Source: Ostreococcus lucimarinus
Lineage: Eukaryota
Strand: one strand, 5' to 3'
Length of the DNA stretch: 64,000 nucleotides
Assembly (NCBI GenBank): GCA_000092065.1
Contig: CP000591.1
Below are positions 1 to 64,000 of this stretch, in pieces. The first letter of the stretch is position 1. Each line of letters begins with the position of its first letter. Below the pieces are notes generated by a model. The model worked only from the letters and a program-made list of their open reading frames with translations. It was not told where the DNA came from and did no database searches. The translations under genes were made by a program, and so were the position numbers.

Positions 1-1
1 G

Positions 2-418
2 CACGCGTCGAGCGCGTACGTGCACTCACTGAGTGAAGTCTTGGAGAACCCCACGGTTCGAGCTTTGATTTCCGATACCAAAGCGGCGAGCGAAGTGAAA
101 GCGCTCGATGACTTCTTCGAAATGCTCGCTAATGATCCCGCGCGCGCGTTTTACGGTCCCGCGCACGTCATGGCGGCGCACGAGCTGAACGCCATCGACA
201 AGCTTTTGATCACGGATACGGTGTTTCGAACGCGCAACGTCGCGCAACGAAAAATGTGGGTGCGCGTCACCGAAGAAGTCACGAAATCTGGTGGAATCGT
301 GCACATTTTTTCATCCGCGCACGCGAGCGGGGAGCAGCTCGAGCAAATCACGGGCGCGGCGGCGATTTTGCGATTTCCACTACCCGACCTCGCCGACGCC
401 GAGTTGCCGGCGCTCTAG
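2..418 (+). CDS. PELO: Pelota/Dom34 ribosome-rescue factor, C-terminal part (gene begins upstream of the window)
   Basis: The reading frame is open from the window edge. The motif DDFFEMLANDPARAFYGPAHVMAAHELNAIDKLLITD ... VHIFSSAHASGEQLEQITGAAAILRFP matches eRF1 domain 3 of Pelota. The nominal M at 20 is a GTG codon. Confidence 0.8.
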   Translation, partial: HASSAYVHSLSEVLENPTVRALISDTKAASEVKALDDFFEMLANDPARAFYGPAHVMAAHELNAIDKLLITDTVFRTRNVAQRKMWVRVTEEVTKSGGIVHIFSSAHASGEQLEQITGAAAILRFPLPDLADAELPAL

Positions 419-488
419 TCTTTTAGTGAACAACGTAGCGGTCATCATTCATAAACAATTCTTTCGTCGCTAAATTTTACGAGACGAT

Positions 489-1298
489 CTAAAACAACAA
501 ATCTTCGTCGTGCTCGCTTTCGATCAAATTCCCTCCCGCCCCGCGTCCGCCCTCACCTCCGATGACGTCCCCGAACGCCCGCAACTCCGCATCCACGGCT
601 TGCGTGATCCGTTTCTCTTCCTCCGCCTCCATCATCTCCGTCTCCTCGATGTCTTTCTTCTTCTTCGCCTGCACCTTTTTCAACCTAAAGAACTCCTCCC
701 GCTCGAGTTCGTCCAACTCGCTCAAGATGTACTTCACCGTGTTCTGCAATCTCGGCGTCACGTAATTCTCCAACGCGTTCACCCGTCGATTCGTCGTCTT
801 TATCGCCTCGTCCAGCGTCACGAACGCCGTCTGCAAGCTCGCTAATTCGCTCAACAATCCAATCGCCTCGCCGTACGACGCCTTCGCCTCTCGCACGCGC
901 GCCCCCCCCCGCGCCAATCCCGTCAGCTCCATCCTCCGTTCGTCCGCCCCGCACTTCCTGCACGTAAACTTCGGTATCTTCACTCCCGCCACGTTATCCT
1001 CGTGCGCCATCACTCGCACGTTCGCCCGGTCCACGCCGTCCAGCACCGCGTGCTTCACCGCGTCCCCCCCCGCGTACTTCGCCCGCGTCCACGCGAAGTG
1101 CGCGTCCCGCATCGACGTCGCCAGCTTACGCTTCGCCTCGACGATGTCGCGCAGGATGCCGCGATACCGCAGCGTCAGCGCGTCCGCCTTCTTCTTCAGC
1201 AATCGATGCCCGCGCTGCGCGCCCGCGAGCCGAGATTTGATCACCGCGAGCGTCGTCACCGTCGGCGTCACGTTCAATCGCGCGCCCGCGCTCGACAT
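489..1298 (-). CDS. ATP6V1D: V-type ATPase subunit D
   Basis: Translates to MSSAGARLNVTPTVTTLAVIKSRLAGAQRGH..LLKKKADALT ... LDEAIKTTNRRVNALENYVTPRL, collinear with V-ATPase subunit D/Vma8 along its full length. A real ATG lies at 1298; the ORF-track start at 1445 is an Arg-rich upstream extension. Confidence 0.9.
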   Translation of the reverse strand: MSSAGARLNVTPTVTTLAVIKSRLAGAQRGHRLLKKKADALTLRYRGILRDIVEAKRKLATSMRDAHFAWTRAKYAGGDAVKHAVLDGVDRANVRVMAHEDNVAGVKIPKFTCRKCGADERRMELTGLARGGARVREAKASYGEAIGLLSELASLQTAFVTLDEAIKTTNRRVNALENYVTPRLQNTVKYILSELDELEREEFFRLKKVQAKKKKDIEETEMMEAEEEKRITQAVDAELRAFGDVIGGEGGRGAGGNLIESEHDEDLLF

Positions 1299-1402
1299 GA
1301 CGGCGATTGAATGATCCGCGCGTCGGGTCGCGGCGTTCCTATCGCGTCGGCGCGCGATGTGCGGCGTCACATCGCGCGCCGCATCCATCCATCCATCGCG
1401 CG

Positions 1403-2578
1403 ATGCGCGCGCGCGGCGTCGCGCGCGTCGCGTCGGGACGTCCATCGACGCGCGCGAGGCGCGTCGTCCATCGACGTCGCGCGCGCGCGTCGATGGACGA
1501 CGCGCGAGGCGCGAAGCGGGCGTCGCCGACGCGCGAGACGACGACGATGGCGAATCTGGACTCGGCGCTGGGGACGCGCGCGCGCGACGGCGACGGCGCG
1601 GCGACGCGCGAAGCGCGATCGACGCGCGACGAGGCGTCGGACGACGCGACGCGCGGGCGCGCGGATCCGCTGGCGGCGTACGACGCGGATCGGGATTGGC
1701 TCGGCGCGGGGCCGCGATGGGACGTCCCGCACGGCGGCGCGCGCTTCGCGGCGACGATGCTCGCCGTGGACGCGAGCTTCTACGCGGCGGGGTGCTTGGC
1801 GCCGATGGTTGAGCACGCGGCGAGGGCGAGTCGGGAAGGGCGGGACGCGCCCGAGAGCGCGGAGGCGCTGGCGGAGGATTTGCGACGCGCGTTCGACGAC
1901 CCGAGCGCGTTCGCGGATATTCTACTAGACGCGGAGATTATTCAAATCGCGCTCGGCGCGGGGATTTTGGCGCTGAGCGTGAAGAAGTTCGCGCCGCTGC
2001 CGTTGGGGTGGTTTAACGATGCGTTCTCGTCGAGTGATGCGGCGGTCAACGCGACGGGTCGCGACGCGTCGAAGTGGAAGCGAGACGCCGCGGCCAAGGC
2101 GCAAAACGAACGCGCGAGCGCGAGCGCGAGCGAGGCGGGAAGGGCGATTTTAGGCACGTTTTTAGGCGTCGCGCTCGTGACGTGGGTTTTGTACGCCGCG
2201 GGATTACGCGGAGGCGATGGGAATGGGTCGTCTAGCGTAGACGTCATCGAAAAGGCGTTCGCGGCGGGCCCTCACGGAATCGCGAATCTCGTCGTCACGA
2301 CGGTGATTTTGGCGCCGATTTTTGAGGAGACCGTGTTTCGCGGGTACATGTTGCCGTCGCTCACGAAATTTATGGACACCACCCCAGCCATCGGGGTGTC
2401 GGCGCTGATTTTCGCGTTGATTCACCAGCACGGCGTCGGCGACACGGTGCAACTCGTCGCCGTTGGGTTGGCGACGGGCATCGTGTACGCGAGGACGAGA
2501 AACTTGGCAGCATCCATCGCGGTGCACGCGGCGTTCAACGCGAGCGTCATCGCGTTGTTCGCTTTGTGGGTAAGTTGA
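1403..2578 (+). CDS. CPBP-family (CAAX protease / Abi) intramembrane metalloprotease with an Arg/Ala/Ser-rich N-terminal presequence
   Basis: The C-terminal half carries the CPBP motifs PIFEETVFRGY ... FALIHQ ... HAAFN plus several hydrophobic helices. The first in-frame ATG is at 1403; the track start at 1307 is TTG. Confidence 0.7.
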   Translation: MRARGVARVASGRPSTRARRVVHRRRARASMDDARGAKRASPTRETTTMANLDSALGTRARDGDGAATREARSTRDEASDDATRGRADPLAAYDADRDWLGAGPRWDVPHGGARFAATMLAVDASFYAAGCLAPMVEHAARASREGRDAPESAEALAEDLRRAFDDPSAFADILLDAEIIQIALGAGILALSVKKFAPLPLGWFNDAFSSSDAAVNATGRDASKWKRDAAAKAQNERASASASEAGRAILGTFLGVALVTWVLYAAGLRGGDGNGSSSVDVIEKAFAAGPHGIANLVVTTVILAPIFEETVFRGYMLPSLTKFMDTTPAIGVSALIFALIHQHGVGDTVQLVAVGLATGIVYARTRNLAASIAVHAAFNASVIALFALWVS

Positions 2579-2616: not shown

Positions 2617-3762
2617 TTACGCGCTAGAAAGAAATTCATCCGCGTCCAACGCTCGGCGCACGCTAAATCGCTCGTTCGGATCGACGGCGGCTAATCTCGT
2701 GATCGTCGCCCACGCGCCCAATTCATCCAATAATGTGAAATCATTCACCCCTGGCACGCACACCTCGCGACGCCAAAGGTCTAAATCTCCCCCGCACGCG
2801 TCAATATCCTTTCGCGCGCGCACGATGGCGCTTTCCCCGCGAAGAGACGGCACGCCGCATCTGAGGAGCGTGACGCCGAGCGAGTACGCATCGAGCAACA
2901 CCGTCGGTGGCTCTCCACTCGGCTCGAGCGTAAAACCATTCGCGGAACTCGCTTCGGCGTTTTTCTTCCTCCCGAACAACCCACCGATGCTCGGAAATCC
3001 ACCGAGCGGCGGCGAACTCGCCACTTTACGAAACTGCTCCGGAGCGCCGTACGTCGGATCAAATATCGCCTCCGCGCCGTCCATATTCCGACCCGTCTGC
3101 ACGTCCGCGCACGCCCCCACGTCGCACAACAACGTCCGCTTTCGTGCGTCGGATAAAATGACATTCGCCGGTTTCACATCCCTGTGTATCATATCGAACG
3201 CGTGCACCGACGCCACGGCTCGCGCGAGCGTCGACGCGAGAAATCGAAACGCCGCCGCGTCGTCGCTCAAATCCCCAAACGTCTCCCTCGCCAGCGCCAG
3301 CCCATCGCCGCGCGCGAGAACGTCCTCTAAAGTCACTCGTCCGACGTCTTCCCACACGAGCCACTGTCCGACGCCGGCGGCGCCCATGAAGGGCGCGACG
3401 CCGTCGCAGTCGCGCAGCGCTCGCGCGCTCTCGAGCTCGTCCGCGTAAAAGCTTTCCACGTCCCGGCCTCGCACGTCCACGCGATACCGCTTGGCGACGA
3501 CGTTCGCAGAATCCTCGTACGTGCCGCGGAAGCACTCGGAGAAGGCGCCGCGACCGACGACGGCGCGCTCGTCGATGCGAAGTTTCGCGAGCGTGAGCTC
3601 CGGGACAGCCGATGTCCCGGAGGTGAAATCCGCGCCGTCTTGCTCGTAAAACGAGCGCCGTCGGCCGAGCGCCGTTCGAGATCGCGCGCGCGCGCGTTGC
3701 GACGCCGTGCGCGCGCGTGCGAGGGCGCGCGCGGGCGCGGGCGTCGATGGACGCGCGCGCAT
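2617..3762 (-). CDS. Ser/Thr protein kinase
   Basis: Kinase motifs are all present: glycine loop GRGAFSECFRG, VAKRY lysine, HRDVKPANVIL catalytic loop, DVGAC and APEQ. The start is an ATG at 3762. Confidence 0.75.
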   Translation of the reverse strand: MRARPSTPAPARALARARTASQRARARSRTALGRRRSFYEQDGADFTSGTSAVPELTLAKLRIDERAVVGRGAFSECFRGTYEDSANVVAKRYRVDVRGRDVESFYADELESARALRDCDGVAPFMGAAGVGQWLVWEDVGRVTLEDVLARGDGLALARETFGDLSDDAAAFRFLASTLARAVASVHAFDMIHRDVKPANVILSDARKRTLLCDVGACADVQTGRNMDGAEAIFDPTYGAPEQFRKVASSPPLGGFPSIGGLFGRKKNAEASSANGFTLEPSGEPPTVLLDAYSLGVTLLRCGVPSLRGESAIVRARKDIDACGGDLDLWRREVCVPGVNDFTLLDELGAWATITRLAAVDPNERFSVRRALDADEFLSSA

Positions 3763-3842: not shown

Positions 3843-4781
3843 CTACACCGAGTCGAAGAGTTTTTGCCACTTCTGCACGTCGTCCTGCGGGCCGTCGCCG
3901 CCCTCGGTGCTTCCGAGCTCGTACGCTCGACCGGCGGCGCTCGCGCACACGAGCGCCGCGCACGCGGCTTCGGCGACGACGAGCCTGGACGTCGCTTCGG
4001 GCAGCAGCTTGTCGTCGCCACCGCCGATCTGCACGTCACGACGCGCGCCAGACGTCGCCTTGAGCAGGGTGTTTAAATCGTACGACGTGTACGGGCCGTC
4101 GGTGAGTCGACCGGGGCGTAAAATCGTATACGGCAACCCGGAATTCTCCACGCACTCCTCACCCTTCCTCTTCCACTTCAGCACCCCGAACGCGTTCAAG
4201 ACGACGAACGGCATCACGTTCGTTCTCAAAACGCCCACGCTGGACACGAAGACGAATCGCTTCAAATTCGGCGCTAATTTCTTCGTCGCCTCGACGACGT
4301 TTCGCGCGCCGACGTAATCCGTCGCCTCCGGCCCGTTCGTAAACTTCCCATCCTCATCCCGCCATCGCGCGCTCGGAAACGCCGTCGTCCCGAGACAACA
4401 CACCACCGCCTCGACGTCGCCGTCGAACGCGCCCGACGCCTCGATCGAACGCGCGTCTCGACAATCGACGCCGCCGACGCTTCGCGGCCCCGTCGTCGTC
4501 GTCTCCTCCGTCCCGCGCCCTCTCGACACCGCCACGACGTCGTACCCGCGCGCGTGCAGTTTCGCGCAGATCACCTGTCCGACCCCACCGCGCGCGCCGA
4601 CGACGACGACGCGCGCCCCGCGCCCTATCGTCGTCGTCGTCGTCGTCGTCCCGTTCCCATTCGCATTCGCATTCGCGCCGCCGCGTCGTCGCCCTCGCGC
4701 GTCGCGTCGTCGCCGACGGTCCACCGCCCCGCGCGACCGCACCGCGACGACCGCCGCGTCTCTCGCGCGCGCCGTCGACAT
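3843..4781 (-). CDS. NAD(P)-binding Rossmann-fold protein, atypical SDR / NmrA-like, with a transit-peptide-like N-terminus
   Basis: Has the dinucleotide-binding motif VVVVGARGGVGQVICAKLHARGYDVVAVSR and an SDR-like fold. The Thr7 run is encoded by an (ACG)n stretch. Start placed at the ATG at 4781. Confidence 0.65.
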   Translation of the reverse strand: MSTARARDAAVVAVRSRGAVDRRRRRDARGRRRGGANANANGNGTTTTTTTIGRGARVVVVGARGGVGQVICAKLHARGYDVVAVSRGRGTEETTTTGPRSVGGVDCRDARSIEASGAFDGDVEAVVCCLGTTAFPSARWRDEDGKFTNGPEATDYVGARNVVEATKKLAPNLKRFVFVSSVGVLRTNVMPFVVLNAFGVLKWKRKGEECVENSGLPYTILRPGRLTDGPYTSYDLNTLLKATSGARRDVQIGGGDDKLLPEATSRLVVAEAACAALVCASAAGRAYELGSTEGGDGPQDDVQKWQKLFDSV

Positions 4782-5386
4782 CGCGCGTCGCGTCGTCGCC
4801 TGGCGCCGCGACCGTCGACGCGATGCCCCTGAACCCTCGATAAATCTCTCCCGTGTGCACAAACACTACGAACAGTACTAAAACGCACGTCAATCATTAC
4901 ATAGCGATAAAGGACATAGAATGCGCGTAAACGAACGGCCGAGCGCGACCGACGCGCGCGCCACATCGCGCCCGACCATGCGCGCGGCGCTCGTCGCGAG
5001 CGGTGGAGGTGCGCGACGCGACGCGACGCGCGCGACGCGCGCGAAACCAAACGCGACGCGACGCGCGCGCGCCTCGAACGCGCGATGGACGACGCGCGAA
5101 ACGCGAAAACGATGGCGTCTCGAGACGAACGATCGACGGATCGACTGACGACGACGACGACGACGACGACGATAGGAATCGCGCGCGTGAGTCGCGAACG
5201 AAAGACGCGAAGCGGACGCGTTAAGGATAGACTCGCGATGCGAGCGACGCCGGCGAGCGCGCAGGCGGCGGCGACGGCGGTGAAGGTGCGACGACGACGA
5301 CGAGACGCGGCGACGCGAGACGAGCGGACGACGCGCGCGGACGACGAGACGCGGAGACTGACGAAGGCGCGACGCGATGGACGCGG

Positions 5387-7159
5387 ATGGGGACGCAGGG
5401 CGGCACGGCGCTGATAAGCACGACGGCGGAGTGGCGAGCGCTGAAGGAACACTTCGCGAATGAGATCGATAAGACGCACCTGAGAGATTTGATCGCGGAC
5501 GCGAAGCGATGCGAGGAGCTCGTGATTGAGAGCGACGGGGTGTACTGCGACTTTGCGAGACAGCGAGTGACGCACGATACGATGACGAAGTTGTACGATC
5601 TCGCGCGCGCGGCGGGGGTGAAGGAGAAGATCAATGCGATGTTTAATGGGGAGGCGATCAACTCCACGGAGAACCGGGCGGTTTTGCACGTCGCGACGCG
5701 GGCGCCGAAGGATAAGGTGATCAACGTCGACGGGAAAAACGTGGTGCCGGACGTGCACGACGTCTTGGATAAGATTAAGGACTTTTCTGAGCGCGTGCGC
5801 AACGGGGAATGGGTCGGGGAAACGGGTAAGCCGTTGAAGGATGTCGTGGCGATCGGGATTGGTGGATCTTTCCTCGGCCCGCTCTTCGTGCACACGTCGT
5901 TGCGCACGAACCCGGAAGCCGCCGACGAGGCGCGAGGGCGTCAGCTTCGGTTTTTGGCCAACGTCGACCCGGTCGACGTCGCTCGCTCGTTAAACGGTTT
6001 GGATCCGGAAACGACGCTCGTGATCGTGGTTTCGAAGACGTTCACCACGGCGGAGACTATGTTGAACGCGCGCACCGTGCGCGCGTGGATTCGCGCGTCC
6101 CTCGGCGAAGCCGCGGTGTCAAAGCACATGGTGGCCATTTCGACCAACTTGAAGCTCGTTGAAGAGTTTGGCATCGACCCTGATAACGCTTTCGCCTTCT
6201 GGGATTGGGTTGGCGGGCGATACTCCGTGTGCAGCGCCGTGGGGATGTTGCCGCTTTCGCTCCAGTACGGCTACGACACGATGGAGCAATTCTTGAAGGG
6301 CGCGTGGTCGATGGATCAACACTTTGCCAACGCGCCGTTCGAGAAGAACTTACCGCTGACGCTCGGTATGTTGTCCGTGTGGAACGTCAGCTTCCTGGAT
6401 TGTCCGGCTCGCGCCATTTTGCCGTACACGCAAGCGCTCGCCAAGCTCGCGCCGCACATTCAGCAAGTCGCGATGGAATCCAACGGTAAGGGCGTCGCCA
6501 TCGACGGCACCCCGCTCGATTACGAAACCGGTGAGATTGATTTCGGTGAGCCCGGTACGAATGGTCAGCACTCCTTCTACCAGCTCATTCATCAAGGTCG
6601 CACGATTCCGTGCGATTTCATCGGCATCATCAAATCGCAGCAAAGCGTGTACTTGAAGGGTGAAATCGTCTCCAACCACGACGAGTTGATGTGCAACTTC
6701 TTCGCCCAAGCCGACGCGCTCGCGGTTGGGAAATCCGCCATCGAGCTTCGTGCGGAATCTTGCCCGGATGCGTTGATCCCGCATAAGACTTTCACCGGTA
6801 ACCGTCCGTCGTTATCCATTTTGCTCCCCGAGCTCAACGCGTACACCACCGGTCAGCTCTTGTCGCTCTACGAGCACCGCGTCGCGACGCAAGGCTTCGT
6901 CTGGGGCTTGAACTCGTTCGATCAATGGGGCGTCGAGCTCGGCAAGGTGCTCGCCTCCCGCGTGCGCACGTCCATGAACAGCAAGCGCACCAAGGGTGAA
7001 ATCATGACCCCCGGCGACGGCTTCAACCCGTCCACCACCGCCCTGTTGAACCGCTACCTCGCGGGCAAGGCGAAGCTCATCTATCCGGAGCCCAAGGACG
7101 TGTTCCCGTGCGATTTGATCGACGGCGACGAGTGCCGTCCGCCCACGTCGTACGTATGA
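5387..7159 (+). CDS. PGI: glucose-6-phosphate isomerase, plant cytosolic type
   Basis: Near-collinear over about 590 aa with plant cytosolic PGI. Matching blocks include [39 protein letters not shown] and [19 protein letters not shown]. Confidence 0.95.
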
Positions 7160-7369: not shown

Positions 7370-8218
7370 ATGGCCTCGCGCGCGTCCGCGCCGTCGGCGC
7401 GCGCGACGTCGACGAAAACTCGGCGCGCGACGGGGAATCATCGCCGAACGATGATCGCGCGTCTCGCGCGTTCGCGCGTCGCGCGCGCGTCGAACGGCGA
7501 GGGAGACGAAGAATTTCGAGCGTCCGTGGATGGATTGAGGGAACCGTGCGACGATTTCGTGTGCAAGAGCTCGCCCGCGGTGGAGAACACGCTAAAGTCG
7601 TTGATTAAGGACATCAACGCGGCGCGAGGGACGAATCGAAGCGCGGCGCCGTACTCGCCCGACGTGACGTACGACGACGGCGCGCTGCGATTCGCGGGGA
7701 GCGAAAAGTATAAGCGGTACTGCTCGTACATCGAGAATAATCTGAGGCAGGTGACGACGAGGGTGACGGAGATATCGATGGAGGGGTCGCTGGACGTCGC
7801 GACGGTGAAGTGGGAGTTGAACGCGGTGAACGACATCGGAAGAGTCGGCGTGGACGTGACGGCGACGTATAAGATGAATTTGATCACGGGGCGAGTGTTG
7901 GAACACAGAGAGCAATGGGTGGTGAATCCAGCGAGGACGGATGCGCAGGCGGGGGCGTTGTTGGAGTCGACGCGAAAGGCGCACGCGTTGCCGCTCAACG
8001 CCATGGAGGTGGCGGACGAGGCGAAGAAGAAGTTTCGAGAGATTTCGAAATCGTTCGCGTCGGAGGACGACCAAGAAAATAGTAACATATACGTCGACCC
8101 GAACGACCCGATGAAGTTTTTCCAGCAAGACGACACGTCAAAGACGGATCTCTTGCAGTTGAGTCTCGTCGCCGCCGTCATCTATCTCCTGACGAAGGTT
8201 TTTCAAGTCTTGAATTGA
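7370..8218 (+). CDS. hypothetical protein with a C-terminal transmembrane anchor and a transit-peptide-like N-terminus
   Basis: High G/C at codon third positions and a non-repetitive sequence, unlike the low-complexity antisense ORF at 7438-8181. Ends in a hydrophobic tail LLQLSLVAAVIYLLTKVF. I recognise no family. Confidence 0.45.
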   Translation: MASRASAPSARATSTKTRRATGNHRRTMIARLARSRVARASNGEGDEEFRASVDGLREPCDDFVCKSSPAVENTLKSLIKDINAARGTNRSAAPYSPDVTYDDGALRFAGSEKYKRYCSYIENNLRQVTTRVTEISMEGSLDVATVKWELNAVNDIGRVGVDVTATYKMNLITGRVLEHREQWVVNPARTDAQAGALLESTRKAHALPLNAMEVADEAKKKFREISKSFASEDDQENSNIYVDPNDPMKFFQQDDTSKTDLLQLSLVAAVIYLLTKVFQVLN

Positions 8219-8251: not shown

Positions 8252-9238
8252 CTATTCGATATCGTACGAGTCGCCAAACATCATGCGTCTCGCTTCGCCT
8301 TCCGAGCGAAGATGCTTGAGCGCCGTCGCAGCGCGCCGATCGACGCTGCCTCCTCCGCTCGAGCCACCGTCTCGCCGTCCTTTGTTCTTCCCTTTCTTTT
8401 TCCCTCGCCTCCTTAAAGACGTCACCGCGTCTTCGCCGTCCCGTCCCGACGCTGACGCCGACGCCGACGTCGAAGCATCGCTCGTCTCCGTCGCCTCCGT
8501 CGTCTCCGCCTTCTCGTTCTCCGGAATGCGTCCTCGCAGTCTCGCGAGTAACTTCCCACCCGTCGTGTGCTCCCATCCCGTCAAATCCGTCAGCCCAAAC
8601 TCCACCAAAAACTCTTCAAAATATTCCTCCGCCGTCACGCGATCGGGCTTTGGTAAGTTCTTATTCCTACTCTTTAACTTTTGCAAATAAAAGGCGCTCT
8701 GCATCAACGATTGCTTGTCCGCCGCTCTCGAAGTGTACTGCGCCACCGAAACGAACGACACACAAAACGCCGTAAACACCGTCATCACCAACCATGCGCT
8801 GAATTTCACCTCCTCCTTATCAAACGCGCTTCTCTTTCCAAATTTCGGTCTCGCAAACTTCGGCAACGACGCGATGACGTCGTCGTACTCTTTCCGCAGC
8901 GTCTCGTCGAGCAAAATTTTCTTCGCCTCGGCGATGACTTCAAAATGTTTCTTCGCCTTTTGGCGCTGCGCACGGTCCATCTCCTTCGGCAGTTTGTCCG
9001 GGTGCAAGCTCAGGGCGAGTTTACGGTACTTCTTCGCGATGATCGTGCTATTGGCGTCTCGTGCGACGTCCAGAGCGCCGTAAAAGTCGTTTCGAGCGTA
9101 GTGGATGAACTCATAGGTTGTCGACGCTTCGACGCCGCGCACGCGCGACGCGACGCACGCAAACGCGGATGCGCACGCGAACAAGGTCACATACCACGTC
9201 GCACGTCGGCGCGTCGCACGCGAACGCGCGTTCGACAT
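8252..9238 (-). CDS. membrane DnaJ (J-domain) protein, DNAJC1/ERdj-like
   Basis: Has an N-terminal signal/TM segment (YVTLFACASAFACVA) followed by a J domain with the HPD motif (YGALDV ... YRKLALSLHPDK ... EYD) and a second TM helix. Confidence 0.75.
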   Translation of the reverse strand: MSNARSRATRRRATWYVTLFACASAFACVASRVRGVEASTTYEFIHYARNDFYGALDVARDANSTIIAKKYRKLALSLHPDKLPKEMDRAQRQKAKKHFEVIAEAKKILLDETLRKEYDDVIASLPKFARPKFGKRSAFDKEEVKFSAWLVMTVFTAFCVSFVSVAQYTSRAADKQSLMQSAFYLQKLKSRNKNLPKPDRVTAEEYFEEFLVEFGLTDLTGWEHTTGGKLLARLRGRIPENEKAETTEATETSDASTSASASASGRDGEDAVTSLRRRGKKKGKNKGRRDGGSSGGGSVDRRAATALKHLRSEGEARRMMFGDSYDIE

Positions 9239-12936: not shown

Positions 12937-13000
12937 CTGGCGGCGCAAAACCCGTCGCGCGTCAGTCGAGAGCTTCGGGACAAAAAGTGTACTTTCGCAC

Positions 13001-51772: not shown

Positions 51773-51853
51773 GTGCGCGCGACGGCGCGCGCGAACGCGA
51801 ACGCGAACGACCGCGATCGATCGTTCGACTGACGGTTGGGCGTCGCGCCGCAG

Positions 51854-52123
51854 GGCGAACGAAACAACATCGACACCGTGCAGAGCGGATGGTTGGGCAC
51901 CGTGCTCTTGGGCTCGGGCGCGCTGCAAGTCATGTCCGCGCTGGACGGCGAGTGCACGAAGAACCAAATGGGCGGCGCCGCGCTCGCGTGGGCGGTGACG
52001 CTTCCGGAATACGTCGCGCAGCGCGACGACTTCAAGGGACCGATGCTCTACGCGAACACGGCGATGGCCACCGCGCTGACCGCGGTGCTCGTCAAGTCGT
52101 ACTTGGATAAGCGGGACAAGTGA
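51854..52123 (+). CDS. small membrane protein, exon 2 (spliced product about 104 aa)
   Basis: GERNNIDTVQSGWLGTVLLGSGALQVMSAL ... AMATALTAVLVKSYLDKRDK has two hydrophobic helices with GxxxG-like packing motifs. The track's M at 51836 is TTG. Confidence 0.45.
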   Translation, partial: GERNNIDTVQSGWLGTVLLGSGALQVMSALDGECTKNQMGGAALAWAVTLPEYVAQRDDFKGPMLYANTAMATALTAVLVKSYLDKRDK

Positions 52124-56236: not shown

Positions 56237-57669
56237 TTAACCCACGATCGCCGACGGCTTGATGAGCAGCGGCTTGGCCTGCGCCAAGTCCTCGAGCGAG
56301 GCGGCCAACTTTTGATTCGTTCTCGCGAAGAATTCACGAGCGCTCTTCGCCTTCTTTGTCTCTTCCACTCTGACCACATCCCCGTCTAAGATGACACTCA
56401 TGTCACCGCAGTAAACCTCCTCACCATCCAACGCGCTCGCTCCACCCGTCCACTCCTTCACGGTGTACCCTTGTACGAACGCCTTCAAGCTCGCCTTCAG
56501 ACTCTCCACGGGCGTCTCGACGAGCGCCGCGAGTTTGTCGAGCTTGATCGACGTGTACATTCGCAAGTATCCACGAAGCTTGGGAATTACGGCGTGCGTA
56601 GCGACGGAGTCCAAGAACGCCTTGAGCTGCGTCTTGTGCGCCTCGGAGTTGTCTCCGTCGCCGCTCGCGACAAACTTTGGGCACGCGTACGAAAAGAGGT
56701 CGTCGAAGACGGCGACTTCGCCGCTCGTCATCCGGTTAACCTTTTCGCTATACTTTTGGTGCAAACCCAAAGAAACGGACCCATCGAGTAAGTACTGCTG
56801 GCCCGGAACGAGCGCCATGGTGATAGCGATCAACGCGTACATTTGTTCTTGCTTCTTCAACAAGAGCGGCAGCGCGTGCGGACGTGCGGCGCCAAACCTC
56901 AGCCGTTCGACGTACTGGATGCTTTCGTTAAAGTGACGAATGGCGTCCGTGTATCGGCCGAGCATAAAGTAGGCGAACCCGACGTGATACGAAGTCGCGA
57001 CGTAGGCGCCCGGAATCTTCTTGAACAACCCATCCTTGTCCAAATCCACGGCGTCGAGCGCGGCGAGCGCTCCTTCGTAATCGCCCGTCAAAACGTGCAA
57101 GCGGCAGATACCAATCTGCGCGCAGTACCCGAGCGTGGGCAAAACGTTACTCGAATCAAGCGCGTACCCTTCGTTCGCCGCAAACGAAATCTCTCCCGCG
57201 CGCTCGCGCTCGAGCACGCGCACGATGTCGCTCTTATCCACCAGCGCCTTTAAAAAATTCAACATGCTCGTGCGATCCCAAACTTGCGCGTCCAACGCCT
57301 TGATCGCCTGTAACTCCTCGCTCGTGCGCTTCGAGCTGCCTTTAAACTGTCGGAACGACTGAAACTGATACACGAACTCATCCACCATCTCGTACAACCA
57401 CACGTTCGGCAACTGCATGTTGGCGTCGCCGTGCAACAACGCGCCGAAGAGTTCGCAATAGTTTTCCCACGACCCCTTCCGTTCGTTCGCGCTCGGCGTC
57501 GTCGCTTGGTGCAGGTGTCGGTAATAAAGCTCCGCGTACAGCATCTTAAACACCGGATCGTTCTCCGCGTACGTCGCGATCGCATCGGGCGTCGGCCACG
57601 CCGTCTTCTTGAAGAAGCGTTCGCCGATCGCCGGAAACGAGCGCTCGTACATCGTCAGCGTCTCGTACA
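56237..57669 (-). CDS. EIF3L: eukaryotic translation initiation factor 3 subunit L, exon 2
   Basis: (V)YETLTMYERSFPAIGERFFKKTAWPTPDAIA ... LYAELYYRH ... LPNVWLYEMVDEFVYQFQSF ... PCI domain is collinear with human eIF3L. The track's M at 57670 is a GTG completed by the splice. Confidence 0.9.
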
Positions 57670-57813
57670 CTGCGCGGATCCGCCTCGCCGTCGGCGACGT
57701 CGTCAGTCATCGCGCGCATCGCGCACCGCGCGCCTCCTCGGCGACCGCGCCGTCCCGACGCCTCCTCCGCGCCCGCGCCGCGCGTTCGATCGCGCGCGCG
57801 CGCAAAACCTCTC

Positions 57814-57817
57814 GCGT

Positions 57818-57848
<31 letters not shown>
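57814..57848. repeat. (GCGTC)7 on the plus strand, i.e. (GACGC)7 on the eIF3L strand, located inside the eIF3L intron
   Basis: cgcgtcgcgtcgcgtcgcgtcgcgtcgcgtcgcgcg, read directly. Confidence 0.9.
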
Positions 57849-57850
<2 letters not shown>

Positions 57851-57853
57851 CAC

Positions 57854-57929
57854 CGTTCTTCTCGCGAATGTGTCGATAAAAGTACGTCACGAACTGTTTC
57901 ACCGCATCCCTCGCGCTCGCGGACGCCAT
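57854..57929 (-). CDS. EIF3L: eIF3L, exon 1 (25 codons plus 1 nt), with a 184-bp intron (57853..57670)
   Basis: MASASARDAVKQFVTYFYRHIREKN matches human eIF3L VIPEVIKNFIQYFHKTV. The intron has a GTGCGC donor, ATGACTGACGACG about 35 nt before the CAG acceptor, and contains the (GACGC)7 repeat. Confidence 0.7.
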
Positions 57930-58213: not shown

Positions 58214-61162
58214 ATGCACCGCGTCGGGAAGACGTTCGTCAAGACGACGAAGCGCGGGCAGGCGGTGACCAAGGTGCGACGGGAGCGGTACCTGCGCGAC
58301 GACGTGTACGTCGGATGCGGGGACGCCGCCGTCGAGGCGCGGTATCGAGGACGCGACGAGGCGCTGTACGTGCTTCGACCGGAGCGCCGAGGCGCGAAAA
58401 GCGAGCGAACGATCGCGCTGATCGATTCGAACGTCGCGCTGCATCAGATGGACGCGCTGGCGGACGCGAGGGTGACGGATGTGGTGATTTGCGCGACGGT
58501 GATGGAGGAGACGCGAAACAAGTCGCGGACGTCGTACGAGCGGTTACGAGGATTGTGTAAGGATAAAGAGAAGCGGTTTTACGTGTTTAGTAATGAGAAT
58601 CACGCGGAGACGTACGCGGAAGACGTCGCGGGGGAGTCGGCGAACGATCGGAACGATCGAGCGATACGCAAGGCGGCGGCGTTTTATCGCCGAGCGATTC
58701 CGCGCGCGGCGTGCGAACGCGTGACGCTCGTGACGAATGATCGAGGAAACGCGAGAAAGGCGCGAGAGGAGAATATAGACGTGATGAGCGTGATTGAATG
58801 GATACAGTCGATCTCAAACGACGCGAGCTTGGTGGATTTGGTCGTCCCGGGCGGAGGGGCGGAGATTCCCGAGGACGAACGCGACGCCAAGCGAGCGAAG
58901 AGCGGCGGCGGCGCGAGCGCGAGCGTTTTCGAGGCGTATCTCGACGCGAATGACATCAAGGAAGGTTTAGCGAGTGGAAAATTGATCAAAGGCGGCGTTC
59001 GAACGTCTAGATATAACCCTTTTGAGGCGCACGTGATGAATGAAGGTACCGGAGAAGGCGTACTGCTGAGCGGACGCGCGGCGATGAATCGCGCCATCGA
59101 CGGCGACTTGGTCGCCGTGGAAATCTTGCCCGAATCCCAATGGATTCGTCCGGGTGGTATGATCATCACCGGTACCGCAGAAGAAGACAAAGAGACGTCC
59201 TCCGCGGACGTCGACGCGAAGGACGACGCCGGCGGACTGGCGCCGGAGACTGCGGATGAAACGGACGTCGCTGTCGCGGCGACGAAGGCGTCGGGCGTCG
59301 TTCCCACGGGAAAAGTTGTAGGTATCATTCGGCGCAACTGGCGCGAACGCGGTTATGCGGCGTCGGTCGACATGGGAAGAGACGGCAAAGGTCCAACCGC
59401 AGCCGGTGGCGGCTTCGCATCGCGCGTCTTGTGCGTGCCGAGCGATAGACGATTTCCAAAGATTCGCATCCAGACGCGCCAACTCGAAGGCTTGCTTGAC
59501 CAGCGCATCGTCGTCGTCATCGACGATTGGCCCGCGGATAGCATGTACCCCGAAGGGCACTACGTCAAGTCGCTCGGATTGATCGGTAGCGTCGATGCCG
59601 AAACACAGGCACTTCTGCTCGAAAACGACGTTGACGATCGACCGTTCGCGCCGGCGGTGTACGCGTGCGTGCCCGCCTTGCCGTGGAAAGTCACCGACGA
59701 CCATCTCGCCGAACCCGGTCGCGAGGACTTGCGCGATTTATTGGTGTGCAGCGTCGATCCTCCGGGGTGTAAAGACATCGACGATGCGCTGAGCGCGCGC
59801 GATATCGACGACGAGCGCATTGAAATCGGCGTGCACATCGCTGACGTGACGTCGTTTCTGTTCCCAGACACCGCCATGGACGAAGAGGCGGCGCGTCGAG
59901 GGACGACGACGTACTTGGTGCAACGCCGTTTGGACATGCTTCCGGGAGCGCTGACGACGGACATATGCTCTTTGGTTGGAGGTCAAGAGCGCTTGGCGTT
60001 TTCGGCGTTTTGGATCGTGCAAAAGTCCACGATGCTTCCGGATGAAACCGTCAAACCACGATTTACGAAGAGCGTCATCAAGAGCGCGGCGGCGTTGACG
60101 TACGAGCAAGCGCAGACGCGAATCGACGATGCATCTTTGAACGATGATTTGACGCTCAGCTTGAGGCGACTTCGTGATGTCGCAAGACAGCTACGCAAGC
60201 GGCGCATGGCGAACGGCGCGCTGACATTGGCTTCGCCCGAGGTGCGATTCGAGATGGATCAGCAGTCGAGCGATCCGCTCGACGTGGGCATGTACGTCAC
60301 GCGCGAGACGAATCAAATGGTTGAAGAAATGATGTTGTTAGCCAACGTCAGCACCGCGGAGCGTATTTTGCAAGCATATCCCGCGGCGGCGATGTTACGC
60401 CGTCACCCGATTCCCGAGCAGAAAATGTTTGAGCCCTTACTCAAGGCGGCCAAGGCGTGCGGCGTGGACATTGACACGCAATCCAACCGCACGCTCGCGG
60501 CGAGTCTAGACGCCGCCGTGCGACCGGAAGACGCGTATTTCAACACGCTATTGCGCTTACAAGCGACGCGGTGCATGTCACAGGCGGTGTACTGCAGCTC
60601 GGGCCAATACGCTGGACCAGAGCGCATGCACTACGGTCTCGCCATGCCGTTGTACACGCACTTTACGTCGCCGATTCGTCGGTACGCCGACGTAATCGTA
60701 CACAGATTACTGAGTGCGGCGATCGGGCTGTGTCCTCGTCACAAGTCGTTGGAGGACTCCGATCACGTCAAATCCGTCGCAGACGTCTGCAACGTGCGTC
60801 ATCGCAATTCTCAGCAAGCCGGTCGCGCGTCCGTAGAGTTACACACCTTGGTGTTTTTCCGCAAGCGCAAAATTGTCGCCGACGCGCGCGTCTTCAAAGT
60901 GCGCGCAAACGGACTCGTGGTTTTTGTCCCAAAGTTTGGCATCGAAGGACCTGTGCTCTTCGTCGAGGGCGAAAATAGCGACACCGCGACTTGTACGCTC
61001 GACGAAGACGCTATGACGGTGACGCACAAAGGAAAGACGTGGAAAGTTTTCGACCGGCTCACCGTGCGAGTGGAGGTCGAACAACTCCCTGCGCATCGGA
61101 GTCGTTTGCTCATCACCATCGTTCCTGACGACACTCCGCGCGGGGAGATCGCGAGCGCGTGA
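58214..61162 (+). CDS. DIS3: exosome catalytic subunit DIS3/Rrp44 (CR3, PIN, CSD, RNB and S1 domains)
   Basis: The N-terminus VRRERYLRDDVYVGCGD plus a PIN domain is followed by the RNB domain with HYGLAMPLYTHFTSPIRRYADVIVHR. ATG at 58214; the track's upstream 260 aa are Arg-rich non-coding sequence in the same frame. Confidence 0.9.
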   Translation: MHRVGKTFVKTTKRGQAVTKVRRERYLRDDVYVGCGDAAVEARYRGRDEALYVLRPERRGAKSERTIALIDSNVALHQMDALADARVTDVVICATVMEETRNKSRTSYERLRGLCKDKEKRFYVFSNENHAETYAEDVAGESANDRNDRAIRKAAAFYRRAIPRAACERVTLVTNDRGNARKAREENIDVMSVIEWIQSISNDASLVDLVVPGGGAEIPEDERDAKRAKSGGGASASVFEAYLDANDIKEGLASGKLIKGGVRTSRYNPFEAHVMNEGTGEGVLLSGRAAMNRAIDGDLVAVEILPESQWIRPGGMIITGTAEEDKETSSADVDAKDDAGGLAPETADETDVAVAATKASGVVPTGKVVGIIRRNWRERGYAASVDMGRDGKGPTAAGGGFASRVLCVPSDRRFPKIRIQTRQLEGLLDQRIVVVIDDWPADSMYPEGHYVKSLGLIGSVDAETQALLLENDVDDRPFAPAVYACVPALPWKVTDDHLAEPGREDLRDLLVCSVDPPGCKDIDDALSARDIDDERIEIGVHIADVTSFLFPDTAMDEEAARRGTTTYLVQRRLDMLPGALTTDICSLVGGQERLAFSAFWIVQKSTMLPDETVKPRFTKSVIKSAAALTYEQAQTRIDDASLNDDLTLSLRRLRDVARQLRKRRMANGALTLASPEVRFEMDQQSSDPLDVGMYVTRETNQMVEEMMLLANVSTAERILQAYPAAAMLRRHPIPEQKMFEPLLKAAKACGVDIDTQSNRTLAASLDAAVRPEDAYFNTLLRLQATRCMSQAVYCSSGQYAGPERMHYGLAMPLYTHFTSPIRRYADVIVHRLLSAAIGLCPRHKSLEDSDHVKSVADVCNVRHRNSQQAGRASVELHTLVFFRKRKIVADARVFKVRANGLVVFVPKFGIEGPVLFVEGENSDTATCTLDEDAMTVTHKGKTWKVFDRLTVRVEVEQLPAHRSRLLITIVPDDTPRGEIASA

Positions 61163-61220
61163 AGAGCGGTACGAAGTAGAATATTGTACAACACGATATC
61201 AGTAGGGCTGCTACGAGCGG

Positions 61221-61925
61221 CTATGAAAAAAACGGCGCCTTGCAAACGCACGTCCGACGATTCCCTTGGCACACTCCCTCGAAGCTAGGAAATCGCTTCG
61301 AAAAGCTCGGTTCCGGGGCGATGGCTAACAGTTTTGCCTTTTCGCACGCCAACTTCTCGTCGTCGTCCTTCAACGCGTACCAATGCCTGTATAACCGCAC
61401 AGATTTCACGCAATCCCCCGCGGCGTCGTGCGTCTCCGCCACCTCCGTCGCCAACAAGCACCGCACCAAATGGTCTTGCCCGAACACGCTCCACGACTTG
61501 TACTGCGCGTTAAACACGCGCCATATCCCGCATAAATCGATTAAATCGCCGTAATCCACACCTCTGACCAATCCGAGCCACTGTTCGACGTCCTTCAGCA
61601 CGCCTTGCCCGACGATGACGCACCGCGCGTCGAGCGCCTTCTTCGTCGCCGCCACCGCCTCCGCGAACGACACCCCGCGCTCGGCGAGCAACTGCTCGGT
61701 GAGTCCGGTGAGGGGGGTCAAATAACTCACCACAGGTTTCTCCTGCTTCACGTACACGTTCAACAGCGTTTGCTCCGTGCGCGCGTCGACGATTGCGATT
61801 TGCGCCACCGCTCGGTCGTTGTGCGTCGTGCCGTTGGCGACGCACTCGACGTCGATGGAGACGACGCGCGGCGACACGGCGTACGGGTCGTACGTGCGTG
61901 TTTCGTCGCGCGCGGGGGATTGCAT
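61221..61925 (-). CDS. DEDDh 3'-5' exonuclease (REX4/ISG20-like)
   Basis: The exo motifs are VVSIDVECV (DEDD I), a middle acidic block, and HDAAGDCVKSVRLY (H-x4-D). 234 aa from the ATG at 61925. Confidence 0.7.
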   Translation of the reverse strand: MQSPARDETRTYDPYAVSPRVVSIDVECVANGTTHNDRAVAQIAIVDARTEQTLLNVYVKQEKPVVSYLTPLTGLTEQLLAERGVSFAEAVAATKKALDARCVIVGQGVLKDVEQWLGLVRGVDYGDLIDLCGIWRVFNAQYKSWSVFGQDHLVRCLLATEVAETHDAAGDCVKSVRLYRHWYALKDDDEKLACEKAKLLAIAPEPSFSKRFPSFEGVCQGNRRTCVCKAPFFS

Positions 61926-62093
61926 GATGCGTGCACGGCGATGCGCGCGCTGGGCGCGATGTGCGGGCTCGGCGTCGCGGAGCGTCGGCGCAAACGTCTG
62001 CGACAATCGGGGCGCGGTTCGCTCAAATTTCCTAGATCAATTCACATTCTACTACTGCAATAAGCCTGTTAATATCATACTATGGTGTGGCGC

Positions 62094-64000
62094 TCACGGC
62101 ACCGCGGTCTCGGCTTGAATCACTTGCGTCGCCGACTCGACGGCTGGCGTCGACGCGTCGTCTTGCGCGGCCTGGGTGGAGACGAGATACGCCGAGTCCA
62201 CGCCAGTCTCGCCAGCGGCGCACGACGTGGAATCGAACGCACGGTTCGGATACGTAGGTTTCGGCGGCAATTCGACGCTTTCGGTGCCCATCAAGTCCAG
62301 GATGGAGGCGATCGCAGCGTCGAGTTGGGCGTCCTTCCCGTGAAACGTCGCCACTGGTAAGTTGGACACGAGAACGTCAGGGGTGACGCCCTTTTGCTCG
62401 ATCGCCCAGTCTCCGTTGATGTACGGGCCAAAGGATGGAATGGTGAACCCCGAACCGTCCACTAGACGAAGTTCGGGGTGGCCGCTGTACCCGATGGCGC
62501 CTCCCCAAGTGCGCTCGCCGATCACCGGACCGATGCCGAGCTGTTGAATTCCGAGCGCGAACATCTCGGCGTCGCTGCTTGTTTGCTCGTCAATCAGCAC
62601 GACAACTTTGCCTCTAAACGTGTATTGCATCGTCGTGTCGCCGGCACCGCTTCGTTCGGTGTCGAACATCCACGCCACGCGACGAAGACGCTCGAGCAGC
62701 CACGTGTCAATGTTTCCGCCGGCGTTGCGACGGACGTCGATGATTAAGCCCTTCTTGCGCACGTTCGGGTAAAACTGAGCGGCGAAGTCGTCGAAGGAAT
62801 TACTCGAACCGCGCCCTTCTTGCTCCATGTCTTCCAAGTAAACGTATGCCACGTCGTCGTTGGTCTGGCTCTTCACGTACTCCCGCTTTTGAACGACAGC
62901 ATCCGCGGCTTCTAAAACGTCGCACTCCTCAAGCATGAGCGGCATGACGATGATCATCTCCGTTGTCGGTGCGGGCTGCTCATTTTCGTCATCGCCCTTA
63001 TGTTCCTTCCCGGCCAACTTCGCGTCAGCGTGCACATCACCGTTTTTCAACGGTCCGACACTGTGCCGCGGCTGACCCAGCGGAAGTCTGGGCGCCCCTG
63101 GGGTGGCGTGCTTACGAACCAGGCTCGCCATGTGCGGATCCCGAAGCGTCTTCGTCGCGGTGCTCGCGCCGCCGAGTTGAGACGACGCCATACCCATGCC
63201 ACCACCCATCATCTGCTGCATCATGCGCAACTCTTTCATCTTTTGCAAATCCTCCTCGTCTTTTCGCTCCTGCTCCGACCGCGGCGATTTGATGACTTCG
63301 AGTAAGACTTGCATCCCAGCTTTGCCGCGAAGCAAATTCGACAGAGGCAACTCGGTGGAGTTGACGAGAACGCCATCAATTTTGGCGATGATGTCTCCCG
63401 CCTGCAGTTTGACGTGCGAATAAAGTGAAGAACGACTCAATGATGACTGCGGAGCCTCCAAGATCCCCGAACTTTCGTGAATGTACGCGATTTTCAAACC
63501 CAACGGTGTCATTTCGAAATTCGCGCCGAGGCACGCCGAGGGCGAACCGAGCGGAAGCACGGGATCGTCAGAATGAACGGATACGAACACGTGCAACGCG
63601 GAGAGCTCACCGAAGGCTTGGGCTAAAATGTCCCGCAACTCGCCCTTGGCAGATATTTTATATACCAATGGGCGATAGCGATCGGTGATGGATGTCCAAT
63701 CGACTCCGTGCAATTTTGGGTCATAGAAGGCATCTCTCATGTTGCGCATCGCCTCCTCGTACATTTGCAGCCATTCCTCGCGAGGATTCACGATGACACC
63801 GAAAGTGTCCGGAGGGTACCAAACTTCGGCTCCACGAAGAGCGGATTCTTGATCCAATCCTGGCTGTAATACGCCCTTGGCGGACAAAAGCGCGACACCC
63901 TGTTCGGTGACGAGGGTGAAGACTTGCATGTCCCCGCTCACGACTACCGCCATAGGATCGGGATACAACGGCAAGATTTGACGCGAGTACATGCTGTACA
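62094..64000 (-). CDS. tricorn-like S41 peptidase, C-terminal part (PDZ plus catalytic C1/C2 region); the N-terminal beta-propeller part lies beyond the window end
   Basis: REEWLQMYEEAMRNMRDAFYDPKLHGVDWTSI ... PDZ-like segment ... the catalytic-serine region GNIDTWLLERL, and FRGKVVVLIDEQTSSDAEMFALGIQQLGIGPVIGERTWGG match tricorn core domains. The frame stays open past 63992 to the window edge. Confidence 0.7.
   Translation of the reverse strand, partial: YSMYSRQILPLYPDPMAVVVSGDMQVFTLVTEQGVALLSAKGVLQPGLDQESALRGAEVWYPPDTFGVIVNPREEWLQMYEEAMRNMRDAFYDPKLHGVDWTSITDRYRPLVYKISAKGELRDILAQAFGELSALHVFVSVHSDDPVLPLGSPSACLGANFEMTPLGLKIAYIHESSGILEAPQSSLSRSSLYSHVKLQAGDIIAKIDGVLVNSTELPLSNLLRGKAGMQVLLEVIKSPRSEQERKDEEDLQKMKELRMMQQMMGGGMGMASSQLGGASTATKTLRDPHMASLVRKHATPGAPRLPLGQPRHSVGPLKNGDVHADAKLAGKEHKGDDENEQPAPTTEMIIVMPLMLEECDVLEAADAVVQKREYVKSQTNDDVAYVYLEDMEQEGRGSSNSFDDFAAQFYPNVRKKGLIIDVRRNAGGNIDTWLLERLRRVAWMFDTERSGAGDTTMQYTFRGKVVVLIDEQTSSDAEMFALGIQQLGIGPVIGERTWGGAIGYSGHPELRLVDGSGFTIPSFGPYINGDWAIEQKGVTPDVLVSNLPVATFHGKDAQLDAAIASILDLMGTESVELPPKPTYPNRAFDSTSCAAGETGVDSAYLVSTQAAQDDASTPAVESATQVIQAETAVP

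Follow-up and report, generated by a model that had tools for sequence, protein, structure and literature searches.

The 64-kb stretch of DNA analysed here, referred to throughout as the window, is in our judgement (at a probability of about 0.96) a piece of a nuclear chromosome of the normal, non-outlier type in the marine green picoalga Ostreococcus lucimarinus (clade A, Mamiellophyceae), from strain CCE9901 or from a strain indistinguishable from it at the six proteins compared, and carries about 48 genes to which a bacterial-style listing of open reading frames (ORFs) is a misleading guide. That listing consists for the most part of shadow ORFs that stem from the GC content, with GTG and TTG codons falsely taken as starts. 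The window belongs to a published, already known genome; the finding itself is not new and holds no new biology, its value being mainly one of quality control. Applied to a GC-rich, compact picoeukaryote, the bacterial ORF rule produces about 4 spurious arginine-rich ORFs per real gene and truncates or fragments every gene that contains an intron. As a minor by-product, the analysis points to public gene models whose 5' ends are probably mis-annotated, the start of glucose-6-phosphate isomerase (PGI) being one case.

Relationship to Ostreococcus lucimarinus

Six reference proteins of O. lucimarinus CCE9901 are 100% identical to the translation of the window: XP_001420367, XP_001420369, XP_001420371, XP_001420377 and XP_001420384 in full-length tblastn alignments, and XP_001420541 by exact-sequence look-up. 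The ATG-to-stop ORFs of PGI and of UDP-GlcNAc diphosphorylase are letter-identical to XP_001420367.1 and XP_001420384.1, respectively. The NCBI record that carries the reference proteins is 593,542 bp long. A preliminary description of this DNA had called it green-algal, Micromonas-like nuclear DNA; the eukaryotic, green-algal, mamiellophycean, compact and GC-rich character stands, but the genus, to judge from these six identities, is Ostreococcus.

PGI gives the clearest scale of relatedness. It is 100% identical in O. lucimarinus, 90% in O. tauri and O. mediterraneus, 84% in Mantoniella, 81-84% in other marine clusters and about 73% in land-plant cytosolic PGI. The clusters of Mamiellales outside Ostreococcus are at most 84% identical and none is labelled Micromonas, so that for Micromonas these figures give a bracket in place of a measured value. 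O. tauri and O. mediterraneus share the genus and have compact genomes, but a divergence of 10% in so highly conserved a protein marks them as species distinct from that of the window.

The nuclear genome of O. lucimarinus CCE9901 is available as GenBank CP000581-CP000601 (Palenik et al. 2007, as cited in PMC2483917) and comprises 13.2 Mb, with 60% GC and 7,805 genes, or about 1.7 kb per gene (PMC3491373, Table 1). The window is like it in the six proteins, in the splice and branch consensus (GTGCGTG and GACTGACG), in gene density, in low intron density and in GC range; there is no difference of substance, though its GC content is 62.7% and several reference models (PGI, annexin, Tubby and dihydrolipoyl dehydrogenase, DLD) look shorter at the 5' end.

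Introns and splice signals

Eleven spliceosomal introns were modelled in the window (coordinates in Table 1). About a quarter of the genes have one or two such short introns, nearly all of them near the 5' end. All eleven have a GTGCG donor, the branch motif GACTGACG 21-38 nt before a YAG acceptor, and a length of 64-201 nt. The window has 16 copies of the branch motif where shuffles lead one to expect 2.5 +/- 1.6, and a YAG lies within range downstream of 13 of the 16. A loose donor, branch and acceptor pattern is not enriched in the window relative to shuffles (21 versus 46); only the extended GACTGACG motif is informative for intron finding.

In three genes, those for nucleoside diphosphate kinase (NDK), a telobox Myb protein and ribosomal protein L28e (RPL28e), a conserved domain breaks at the ORF boundary and resumes upstream, beyond a segment containing stop codons. 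The interruption falls between ERTYIMIK and PDGVQRG in NDK, between ...DPEFAALR and SRTGVQLKDKWRNL in the telobox protein and between ...RPDLE and KAALARISAINKA in RPL28e, and in all three the branch motif lies 29-38 nt before the acceptor. When spliced, NDK matches its Pfam profile over positions 1-132 with 181 bits (8-132 and 166 bits unspliced), and RPL28e over positions 2-114 of 115 with 66.5 bits (2-56 and 53.1 bits unspliced). The spliced telobox protein matches the Myb profile over positions 1-45 of 46 with 29.3 bits, while exon 2 alone has no Myb match. A search guided by the motif then gave eight further frame-preserving introns, in the genes for PGI, a dual-specificity phosphatase, a SNARE, annexin, phytepsin and eIF3L and, twice, in a small three-exon gene. 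The alignment of the modelled eIF3L to its human counterpart begins 5 residues before the splice junction, and exon 1 of the SNARE (25365 on) encodes an N-terminal RDRTREF peptide, which we take to resemble the syntaxin-5 N-peptide. The eleven modelled consensus introns, three of them borne out by the restored continuity of a domain, argue strongly for splicing.

Introns of O. lucimarinus confirmed by expressed sequence tags and lying outside chromosome 2 have the donor GTGCGTG and the branch sequence GACTGACG (Irimia and Roy, PMC2483917), with ACTGAC in 87% and the extended motif in 66.5% of the non-chromosome-2 introns (PMC2483917). The splice signals of the window are the same, so that the introns support both its eukaryotic nature and the species assignment, and place it outside the intron-rich part of chromosome 2.

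The branch motif is extended to GATGACTGACG, and hence contains an ATG, in 5 of its 16 copies (33307, 57707, 50899, 46290 and 40439). The copy at 40439 on the minus strand has a (CCGA)n repeat after it and no acceptor in range, and the copy at 20534 on the plus strand lies antisense inside the ABC transporter gene.

Alternative origins

Several points weigh against the assignment and the models that accompany it. The GC content of the window is slightly above the published O. lucimarinus mean. Because PGI, UAP and, for the most part, DLD are the same in environmental strains as in the reference, protein identity cannot fix the strain. All of the introns are computational models built from sequence, and the Pfam score of the dual-specificity phosphatase is hardly altered by splicing (63.3 versus 62.6 bits), so that the case for its intron consists of the splice signals and the absence of any ATG upstream. 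The spliced NDK, phosphatase and telobox proteins have no exact counterpart in the protein collection; the same is true of several ATG-to-stop ORFs.

The alternative that survives best is that the window is an environmental, metagenome-assembled contig of O. lucimarinus clade A, possibly from a bin labelled as bacterial, rather than part of the CCE9901 reference assembly. The very same proteins are encoded on hundreds of metagenome contigs, the 535-aa DLD ORF of the window (10469-12073, plus strand) is deposited at NCBI as MDA9599277.1, 'dihydrolipoyl dehydrogenase [bacterium]', and the shared proteins named above do not discriminate between such strains and the reference. Yet none of the 14 marine metagenome contigs that were compared, all carrying the same proteins and colinear with the window at 99.2-99.8% DNA identity, is identical to it, the best reaching 99.8%; all six of the reference proteins tested are exact matches; and an exact 50-base probe found no match in bacterial and archaeal species genomes, a collection from which the window thus does not come. 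We regard this origin as unlikely, if far from negligible.

An origin in Micromonas (M. pusilla or M. commoda) is very improbable. The cilium- and centriole-associated families encoded in the window (TPH, CEP44 and Tubby) would suit a flagellate, and M. pusilla CCMP1545 and M. commoda RCC299 belong to the same order (Mamiellales), are likewise GC-rich and gene-dense, and present the same shadow-ORF problem. The GC content of the window is also nearer to the 64-65% of the Micromonas genomes (PMC3491373, Table 1) than to the 60% of O. lucimarinus, and its lying between the two probably misled the preliminary description as to genus. The six 100% protein identities to O. lucimarinus CCE9901 refute this origin, however; the nearest PGI clusters outside Ostreococcus are only 81-84% identical, the DNA of the window is nearly identical to that of contigs bearing exact O. 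lucimarinus proteins, and the GTGCG and GACTGACG signals are those described for O. lucimarinus. Micromonas is another genus with larger genomes, of 21-22 Mb (same source), and the exact protein matches of the window are to Ostreococcus.

That the window is prokaryotic or giant-virus (prasinovirus) DNA whose ORFs can be taken at face value is more improbable still: public pipelines have run prokaryotic gene callers on near-identical contigs, and one protein bears the label '[bacterium]', but the introns (eleven consensus models, three restoring split domains) and the eukaryotic housekeeping content refute it, the ORFs overlap massively, to a sum of 2.3 times the window, no tRNA or Rfam matches were found in the window, and the 50-base probe is unmatched in prokaryotic species genomes.

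Shadow ORFs and false starts

We reproduced the bacterial rule by taking the first ATG, GTG or TTG after a stop through to the next stop, with a cutoff of at least 100 aa. This gave 219 ORFs with a summed length of 2.31 times that of the window, 158 of them starting with GTG (86) or TTG (72) and 61 with ATG. Only 41 share a stop codon with an assigned gene. The other 178, of 100-505 aa, match no assigned gene; 117 of these run antisense to an assigned gene for at least half of their extent, another 33 share the strand of a gene in a different frame, and 150 thus sit mostly over genes. The claim that such a listing misleads is thus borne out, for the reason originally given and also because introns break or truncate the real ORFs.

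The shadow ORFs had been described as dozens of Arg/Ala-rich frames of 100-500 aa. Their number and length agree, and so does their richness in arginine, which makes up 19.3% of residues in the 178 non-gene ORFs and 10.2% in real genes; alanine (12.8% versus 13.3%) is not in excess, so that the excess is one of arginine. The two residues together reach at least 25% in 129 of the 178. At a cutoff of 100 aa, mononucleotide shuffles of the window yield 121 ORFs where the window itself has 219; at 200 aa the shuffles yield only 6.4 and the window 94. Base composition alone therefore accounts for many of the short ORFs, while the long ones require coding sequence in another frame.

Across 41 curated coding sequences (CDS) the GC content of the three codon positions (GC1/GC2/GC3) is 0.62/0.48/0.76, and the order GC3>GC1>GC2 is found in 38 of the 41, in agreement with the earlier remark that real genes show G or C in third positions; the accompanying figure of roughly two-thirds GC was somewhat too high. 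From established codon statistics, a GC content of 63% with a GC3 of 76% would be expected to deplete the AT-rich stop triplets in frames that overlap genes, above all antisense ones, and so to leave long open frames shadowing every gene, about 4 for each real one. Built mainly from G/C-rich codons, these frames would encode arginine-rich peptides. Such a mechanism, in which the GC3 bias suppresses stops in other frames, is consistent with the ORF statistics and with the codon-position GC. The introns would break real genes into separate ORFs or truncate them, and a rule that prints 'M' at the first NTG past an upstream stop, a stop that is here often intronic or in the 5' leader, would put spurious starts within introns, in the 5' leader or at a Val or Leu codon inside the gene.

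Six of the printed 'M' starts had been singled out as GTG or TTG, and all six are: GTG at 20(+), 39600(-) and 57670(-), and TTG at 12948(-), 50466(-) and 51836(+). By the gene models, none of them would be a true start. The first encodes an internal Val in a Pelota gene that the window edge truncates, and 39600 is an internal Val just inside exon 2 of the telobox gene. TTG 12948 lies inside the modelled intron of the dual-specificity phosphatase, TTG 51836 within modelled intron 2 of the small three-exon gene, and GTG 57670 overlaps the acceptor of the modelled eIF3L intron, while TTG 50466 precedes the first ATG of the SulP gene by 22 codons. Four of the six (12948, 51836, 57670 and 39600) thus fall in or at modelled introns or in interrupted genes.

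The same problem is visible in public data. In near-identical metagenome contigs, prokaryote-style callers have broken up the three-exon gene (51531-52123) into three separate ORFs and have also called shadow ORFs. Together with the '[bacterium]' label on DLD, this means that Ostreococcus sequence stands in public resources under prokaryotic annotation. Given the spurious ORFs and these labels, such windows should be flagged as eukaryotic ahead of any ORF-based discovery.

Gene content

Genes were identified by Pfam scans of ORFs with a coding-type GC pattern (Table 1). The window holds 44-48 protein-coding genes on both strands, one per 1.3-1.45 kb, and the assigned CDS spans make up about 84% of it. 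Spacers between CDS had been described as often below 100 bp; with the best CDS boundaries this applies to 17 of 43, and the median is 134 bp. The genes form a clearly eukaryotic, housekeeping-type set, including syntaxin, annexin, eIF3L, Dis3, an exosome RNase PH, APC11, a CNOT4-like protein, Tubby, CEP44, V-ATPase D, NDUFB12, RPL28e and a phytepsin with a plant-specific insert; the description of the set as eukaryotic stands. A tRNA scan of the window found no genes, an Rfam scan at gathering thresholds found no matches, and Pfam gave no match for four small ORFs or for a 380-aa protein.

Table 1. Genes assigned in the window, with the evidence for each; exons and introns are models
Feature	Position	Strand	Evidence
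Pelota/Dom34-like, 3' part, cut by window edge	1..418	+	open frame ends 418; same gene in near-identical contigs has Pelota_N, eRF1_2, eRF1_3
V-type ATPase subunit D	489..1388	-	Pfam ATP-synt_D, 3.5e-63
Rce1-like CAAX prenyl protease	1493..2578	+	Pfam Rce1-like, 1e-21
Protein kinase	2617..3762	-	Pfam Pkinase, 9.4e-15
NAD(P)-binding protein	3843..4781	-	Pfam NAD_binding_10, 6.4e-24
PGI	5238..7159	+	Pfam PGI, 4.9e-210; proposed exon 1 5238-5285, intron 5286-5398, exon 2 5399-7159
DUF2358-like, weak match	7370..8218	+	Pfam 1e-3, under curated cutoff; coding GC pattern
DnaJ-domain protein	8252..9238	-	Pfam DnaJ, 2e-15
Conserved 340-aa protein	9380..10402	-	exact sequence on 240 contigs; sole Pfam match a weak LisH
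DLD with N-terminal presequence	10469..12076	+	Pfam Pyr_redox_2, Pyr_redox_dim; XP_001420369.1 100% over 504 aa
Dual-specificity phosphatase, two exons, intron 12937-13000	12127..13126	-	Pfam DSPc; no ATG upstream of domain in exon 2
TPH (trichohyalin-plectin homology) coiled-coil protein	13222..14592	-	Pfam TPH, 3.6e-38
NADH dehydrogenase B12 subunit, 57 aa	14892..15065	-	Pfam NDUF_B12, 1.2e-9
Ankyrin-repeat protein	15206..16297	+	Pfam Ank_2, weak; 363-aa gene called in near-identical contigs
WD40 beta-propeller protein	16346..17458	-	Pfam WD40 families
Tubby-family protein	17841..19058	+	Pfam Tub, 8.3e-54; C-terminal 280 aa identical to XP_001420371.1
Small SET-domain protein	19069..19566	+	Pfam SET, 1e-9
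ABC half-transporter; start uncertain, 22001 or 22514	19647..22001	-	Pfam ABC_membrane, ABC_tran
Cytosolic-type 5'-nucleotidase	22185..24104	+	Pfam 5_nucleotid, 8.7e-164
RNase PH-type exosome subunit	24169..25185	-	Pfam RNase_PH, RNase_PH_C
Qa-SNARE, syntaxin-5-like, two exons, intron 25539-25669	25365..26515	+	Pfam SNARE; intron signals
Coiled-coil protein with acidic tail	26590..27654	+	coding GC pattern, translation; no Pfam match
Small Myb-like protein, 156 aa	27698..28168	-	exact match XP_001420541.1; weak Pfam Myb
Basic 141-aa ORF, tentative gene	28450..28875	+	translation; no Pfam match
Small methyltransferase (MTS)	28978..29658	-	Pfam MTS, 3.2e-5
TRAF/Sina-type zinc-finger protein	29752..32025	-	Pfam zf-TRAF, 1e-12
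Bmt2-type 25S rRNA methyltransferase	32063..32902	-	Pfam Bmt2, 4.5e-59
Annexin, four repeats; proposed exon 1 33133-33139, intron 33140-33340	33133..34983	+	Pfam Annexin, 1.1e-69; 301 aa identical to XP_001420377.1
Phytepsin-type aspartic protease; exon 1 35104-35142, intron 35143-35283	35104..37044	+	Pfam Asp split by SapB_2, SapB_1; acceptor exactly at ORF opening
APC11 RING-H2 subunit	37192..37626	+	Pfam zf-ANAPC11, 2.2e-26
Telobox single-Myb protein, 717 aa; intron 39614-39814	37750..40104	-	Pfam Myb after splicing; TRF-type structural matches
GDSL lipase/acylhydrolase	40374..41465	+	Pfam Lipase_GDSL_2, 1.8e-14
Phosphoribosylanthranilate isomerase (TrpF)	41566..42465	-	Pfam PRAI, 2.1e-36
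NDK with N-terminal extension; intron 42806-42985	42654..43412	+	Pfam NDK, spliced
CEP44-domain protein	43551..44570	+	Pfam CEP44, 4.1e-34
TPR-repeat protein	44616..45785	-	Pfam TPR families
Candidate small gene with in-frame TGA	46045..46600	-	transit-peptide-like ORF, intron with branch motif at 46290; no Pfam match
104-aa ORF	46660..46974	-	translation; also called in near-identical contigs; no Pfam match
Histidine phosphatase (branch 1)	47178..48053	-	Pfam His_Phos_1, 1.5e-19
SulP-family anion permease with inserted EF-hand pair, 743 aa	48169..50400	-	Pfam Sulfate_transp in two stretches and EF-hand families; exact protein in protein collection
RPL28e, two exons, intron 50866-51041	50803..51344	-	Pfam, spliced
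Three-exon gene, 124-aa protein; introns 51573-51709, 51773-51853	51531..52123	+	intron signals; split by prokaryote-style callers in near-identical contigs
UDP-N-acetylglucosamine diphosphorylase	52302..53765	+	Pfam UDPGP; exact match XP_001420384.1
CNOT4-like RING and RRM protein	54170..55975	+	Pfam zf-RING_4, 7.5e-19; RRM_1
eIF3 subunit L, two exons, intron 57670-57853	56237..57929	-	Pfam Paf67, 2.4e-122
Dis3/Rrp44 exosome ribonuclease	58214..61162	+	Pfam PIN_4, CSD1, OB_Dis3, RNB, S1
RNase T/DEDD-type exonuclease	61221..61925	-	Pfam RNase_T, 3.4e-6
Tricorn-like S41 protease, C-terminal part, gene runs off window	62094..64000	-	Pfam Tricorn_C1, PDZ_Tricorn, Peptidase_S41; 1590-aa product in near-identical contigs

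Four genes had been named as marks of a plant-like set: a phytepsin, a cytosolic PGI, a plastid TrpF and a TRB telobox protein. The family names of the first three hold. Phytepsin has its Pfam Asp domain in two stretches (1.9e-108), with SapB_2 at residues 326-357 and SapB_1 at 459-495; within this plant-specific insert, between SapB_2 and SapB_1, the protein encoded at 35284-37044 on the plus strand also contains a His/Asp/Arg-rich low-complexity segment of about 65 aa (HDGHDHDGHDHDHDHDHDHDHG...RRGPRRHGRGPHHHGRH, residues 385-450 or so). PGI shares 71-74% identity with land-plant proteins that bear the name 'glucose-6-phosphate isomerase, cytosolic', and its O. tauri orthologue is named 'cytosolic phosphoglucose isomerase'; by homology to these cytosolic-named proteins it is apparently of the plant cytosolic type. 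TrpF has the expected PRAI domain and a 58-aa N-terminal extension rich in Ser, Thr, Arg and Ala, from which it is reasonable to infer plastid targeting; the subcellular targeting of TrpF, NDK and DLD is in each case putative.

The fourth name needs revision. The telobox Myb domain is found by Pfam at residues 61-111 after splicing, and its best solved-structure matches are to zebrafish Terfa, human TRF1 and TRF2 and plant TRP/TBP1, in alignments that span the splice junction. The protein is like plant TRB/SMH proteins in its telobox-type Myb with the motif VQLKDKWRNL and in the near-N-terminal position of that domain, but it differs from them in that no H1/H5 linker-histone domain was detected either by Pfam (E<=0.01) or by solved-structure search (E<=1), and in that the remaining 600 or so residues are of low complexity, Lys/Ala-rich and acidic, with Lys/Ala/Gly right after the Myb domain. 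We have therefore rejected the TRB label for 37750..40104 in favour of telobox single-Myb protein. In plant TRB proteins the H1/H5 globular domain is central and is followed by a C-terminal coiled-coil domain; in the telobox protein, residues 276-324 gave weak GCN4-like coiled-coil matches in a general solved-structure search.

5' gene models and candidate gene structures

Positions 5387-7156 of the window are 100% identical to the reference PGI XP_001420367.1, and the ATG at 5387 with which the reference starts falls within the modelled intron. This intron has a GTGCGA donor at 5286, GACTGACG at 5356-5363 and a CAG acceptor ending at 5398, preserves the frame, and joins the upstream ATG at 5238 in frame after splicing. 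The resulting N-terminus, in which GGTALISTT follows the junction, resembles the transcript-derived N-terminus of the Mantoniella protein (...GVPAVKDGSALISTT); which N-terminus is made depends on splicing of 5286-5398, and in both cases the extra residues number no more than about 16. Further upstream there is another consensus-like candidate intron, with its donor at 5009, branch at 5144 and acceptor at 5175.

The reference annexin model is a 301-aa partial. The proposed first exon is 7 nt long (ATGGGGA) and would give the N-terminus MGICSS..., which we take to resemble an N-myristoylation/palmitoylation (lipidation) motif. In phytepsin, a modelled first exon of 39 nt would supply the start of a signal peptide. 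The SulP permease has an EF-hand pair sitting between the two stretches of its Sulfate_transp domain; it could be a calcium-regulated anion transporter, and a literature search for SulP proteins with EF-hands found no description of such an architecture. Taken as a set, we consider it about as likely as not that missed short consensus introns have left a number of public gene models here with wrong 5' ends (the intronic PGI start, the 7-nt annexin exon and the 39-nt phytepsin exon), alongside the prokaryote-style calls with their one '[bacterium]' label and a SulP permease that is possibly calcium-regulated.

At 46045-46600 on the minus strand, an ORF that looks like a transit peptide (MAARPLALGF...DQIA) leads to an in-frame TGA, beyond which the frame resumes (VKSPIAAR...VIYK) and enters a candidate intron with a GTAACG donor and the branch motif at 46290. 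In at least 2 near-identical contigs, the calls of prokaryote-style programs break at the same spot. Around the TGA, at about 46.4 kb, an Rfam scan with permissive settings detected no SECIS element, and a selenoprotein is not proposed.

The families TPH (13222-14592, minus strand), CEP44 (43551-44570, plus) and Tubby (17841-19058, plus) are usually tied to cilia or centrioles, and the genus Ostreococcus is described as without flagella. The tricorn-like protease at the end of the window belongs to a family best known from archaea and bacteria. Just 10 bp separate the stop codon of Tubby (19058) from the ATG of the SET-domain gene (19069) on the same plus strand, which implies overlapping transcripts or a shared transcription unit.

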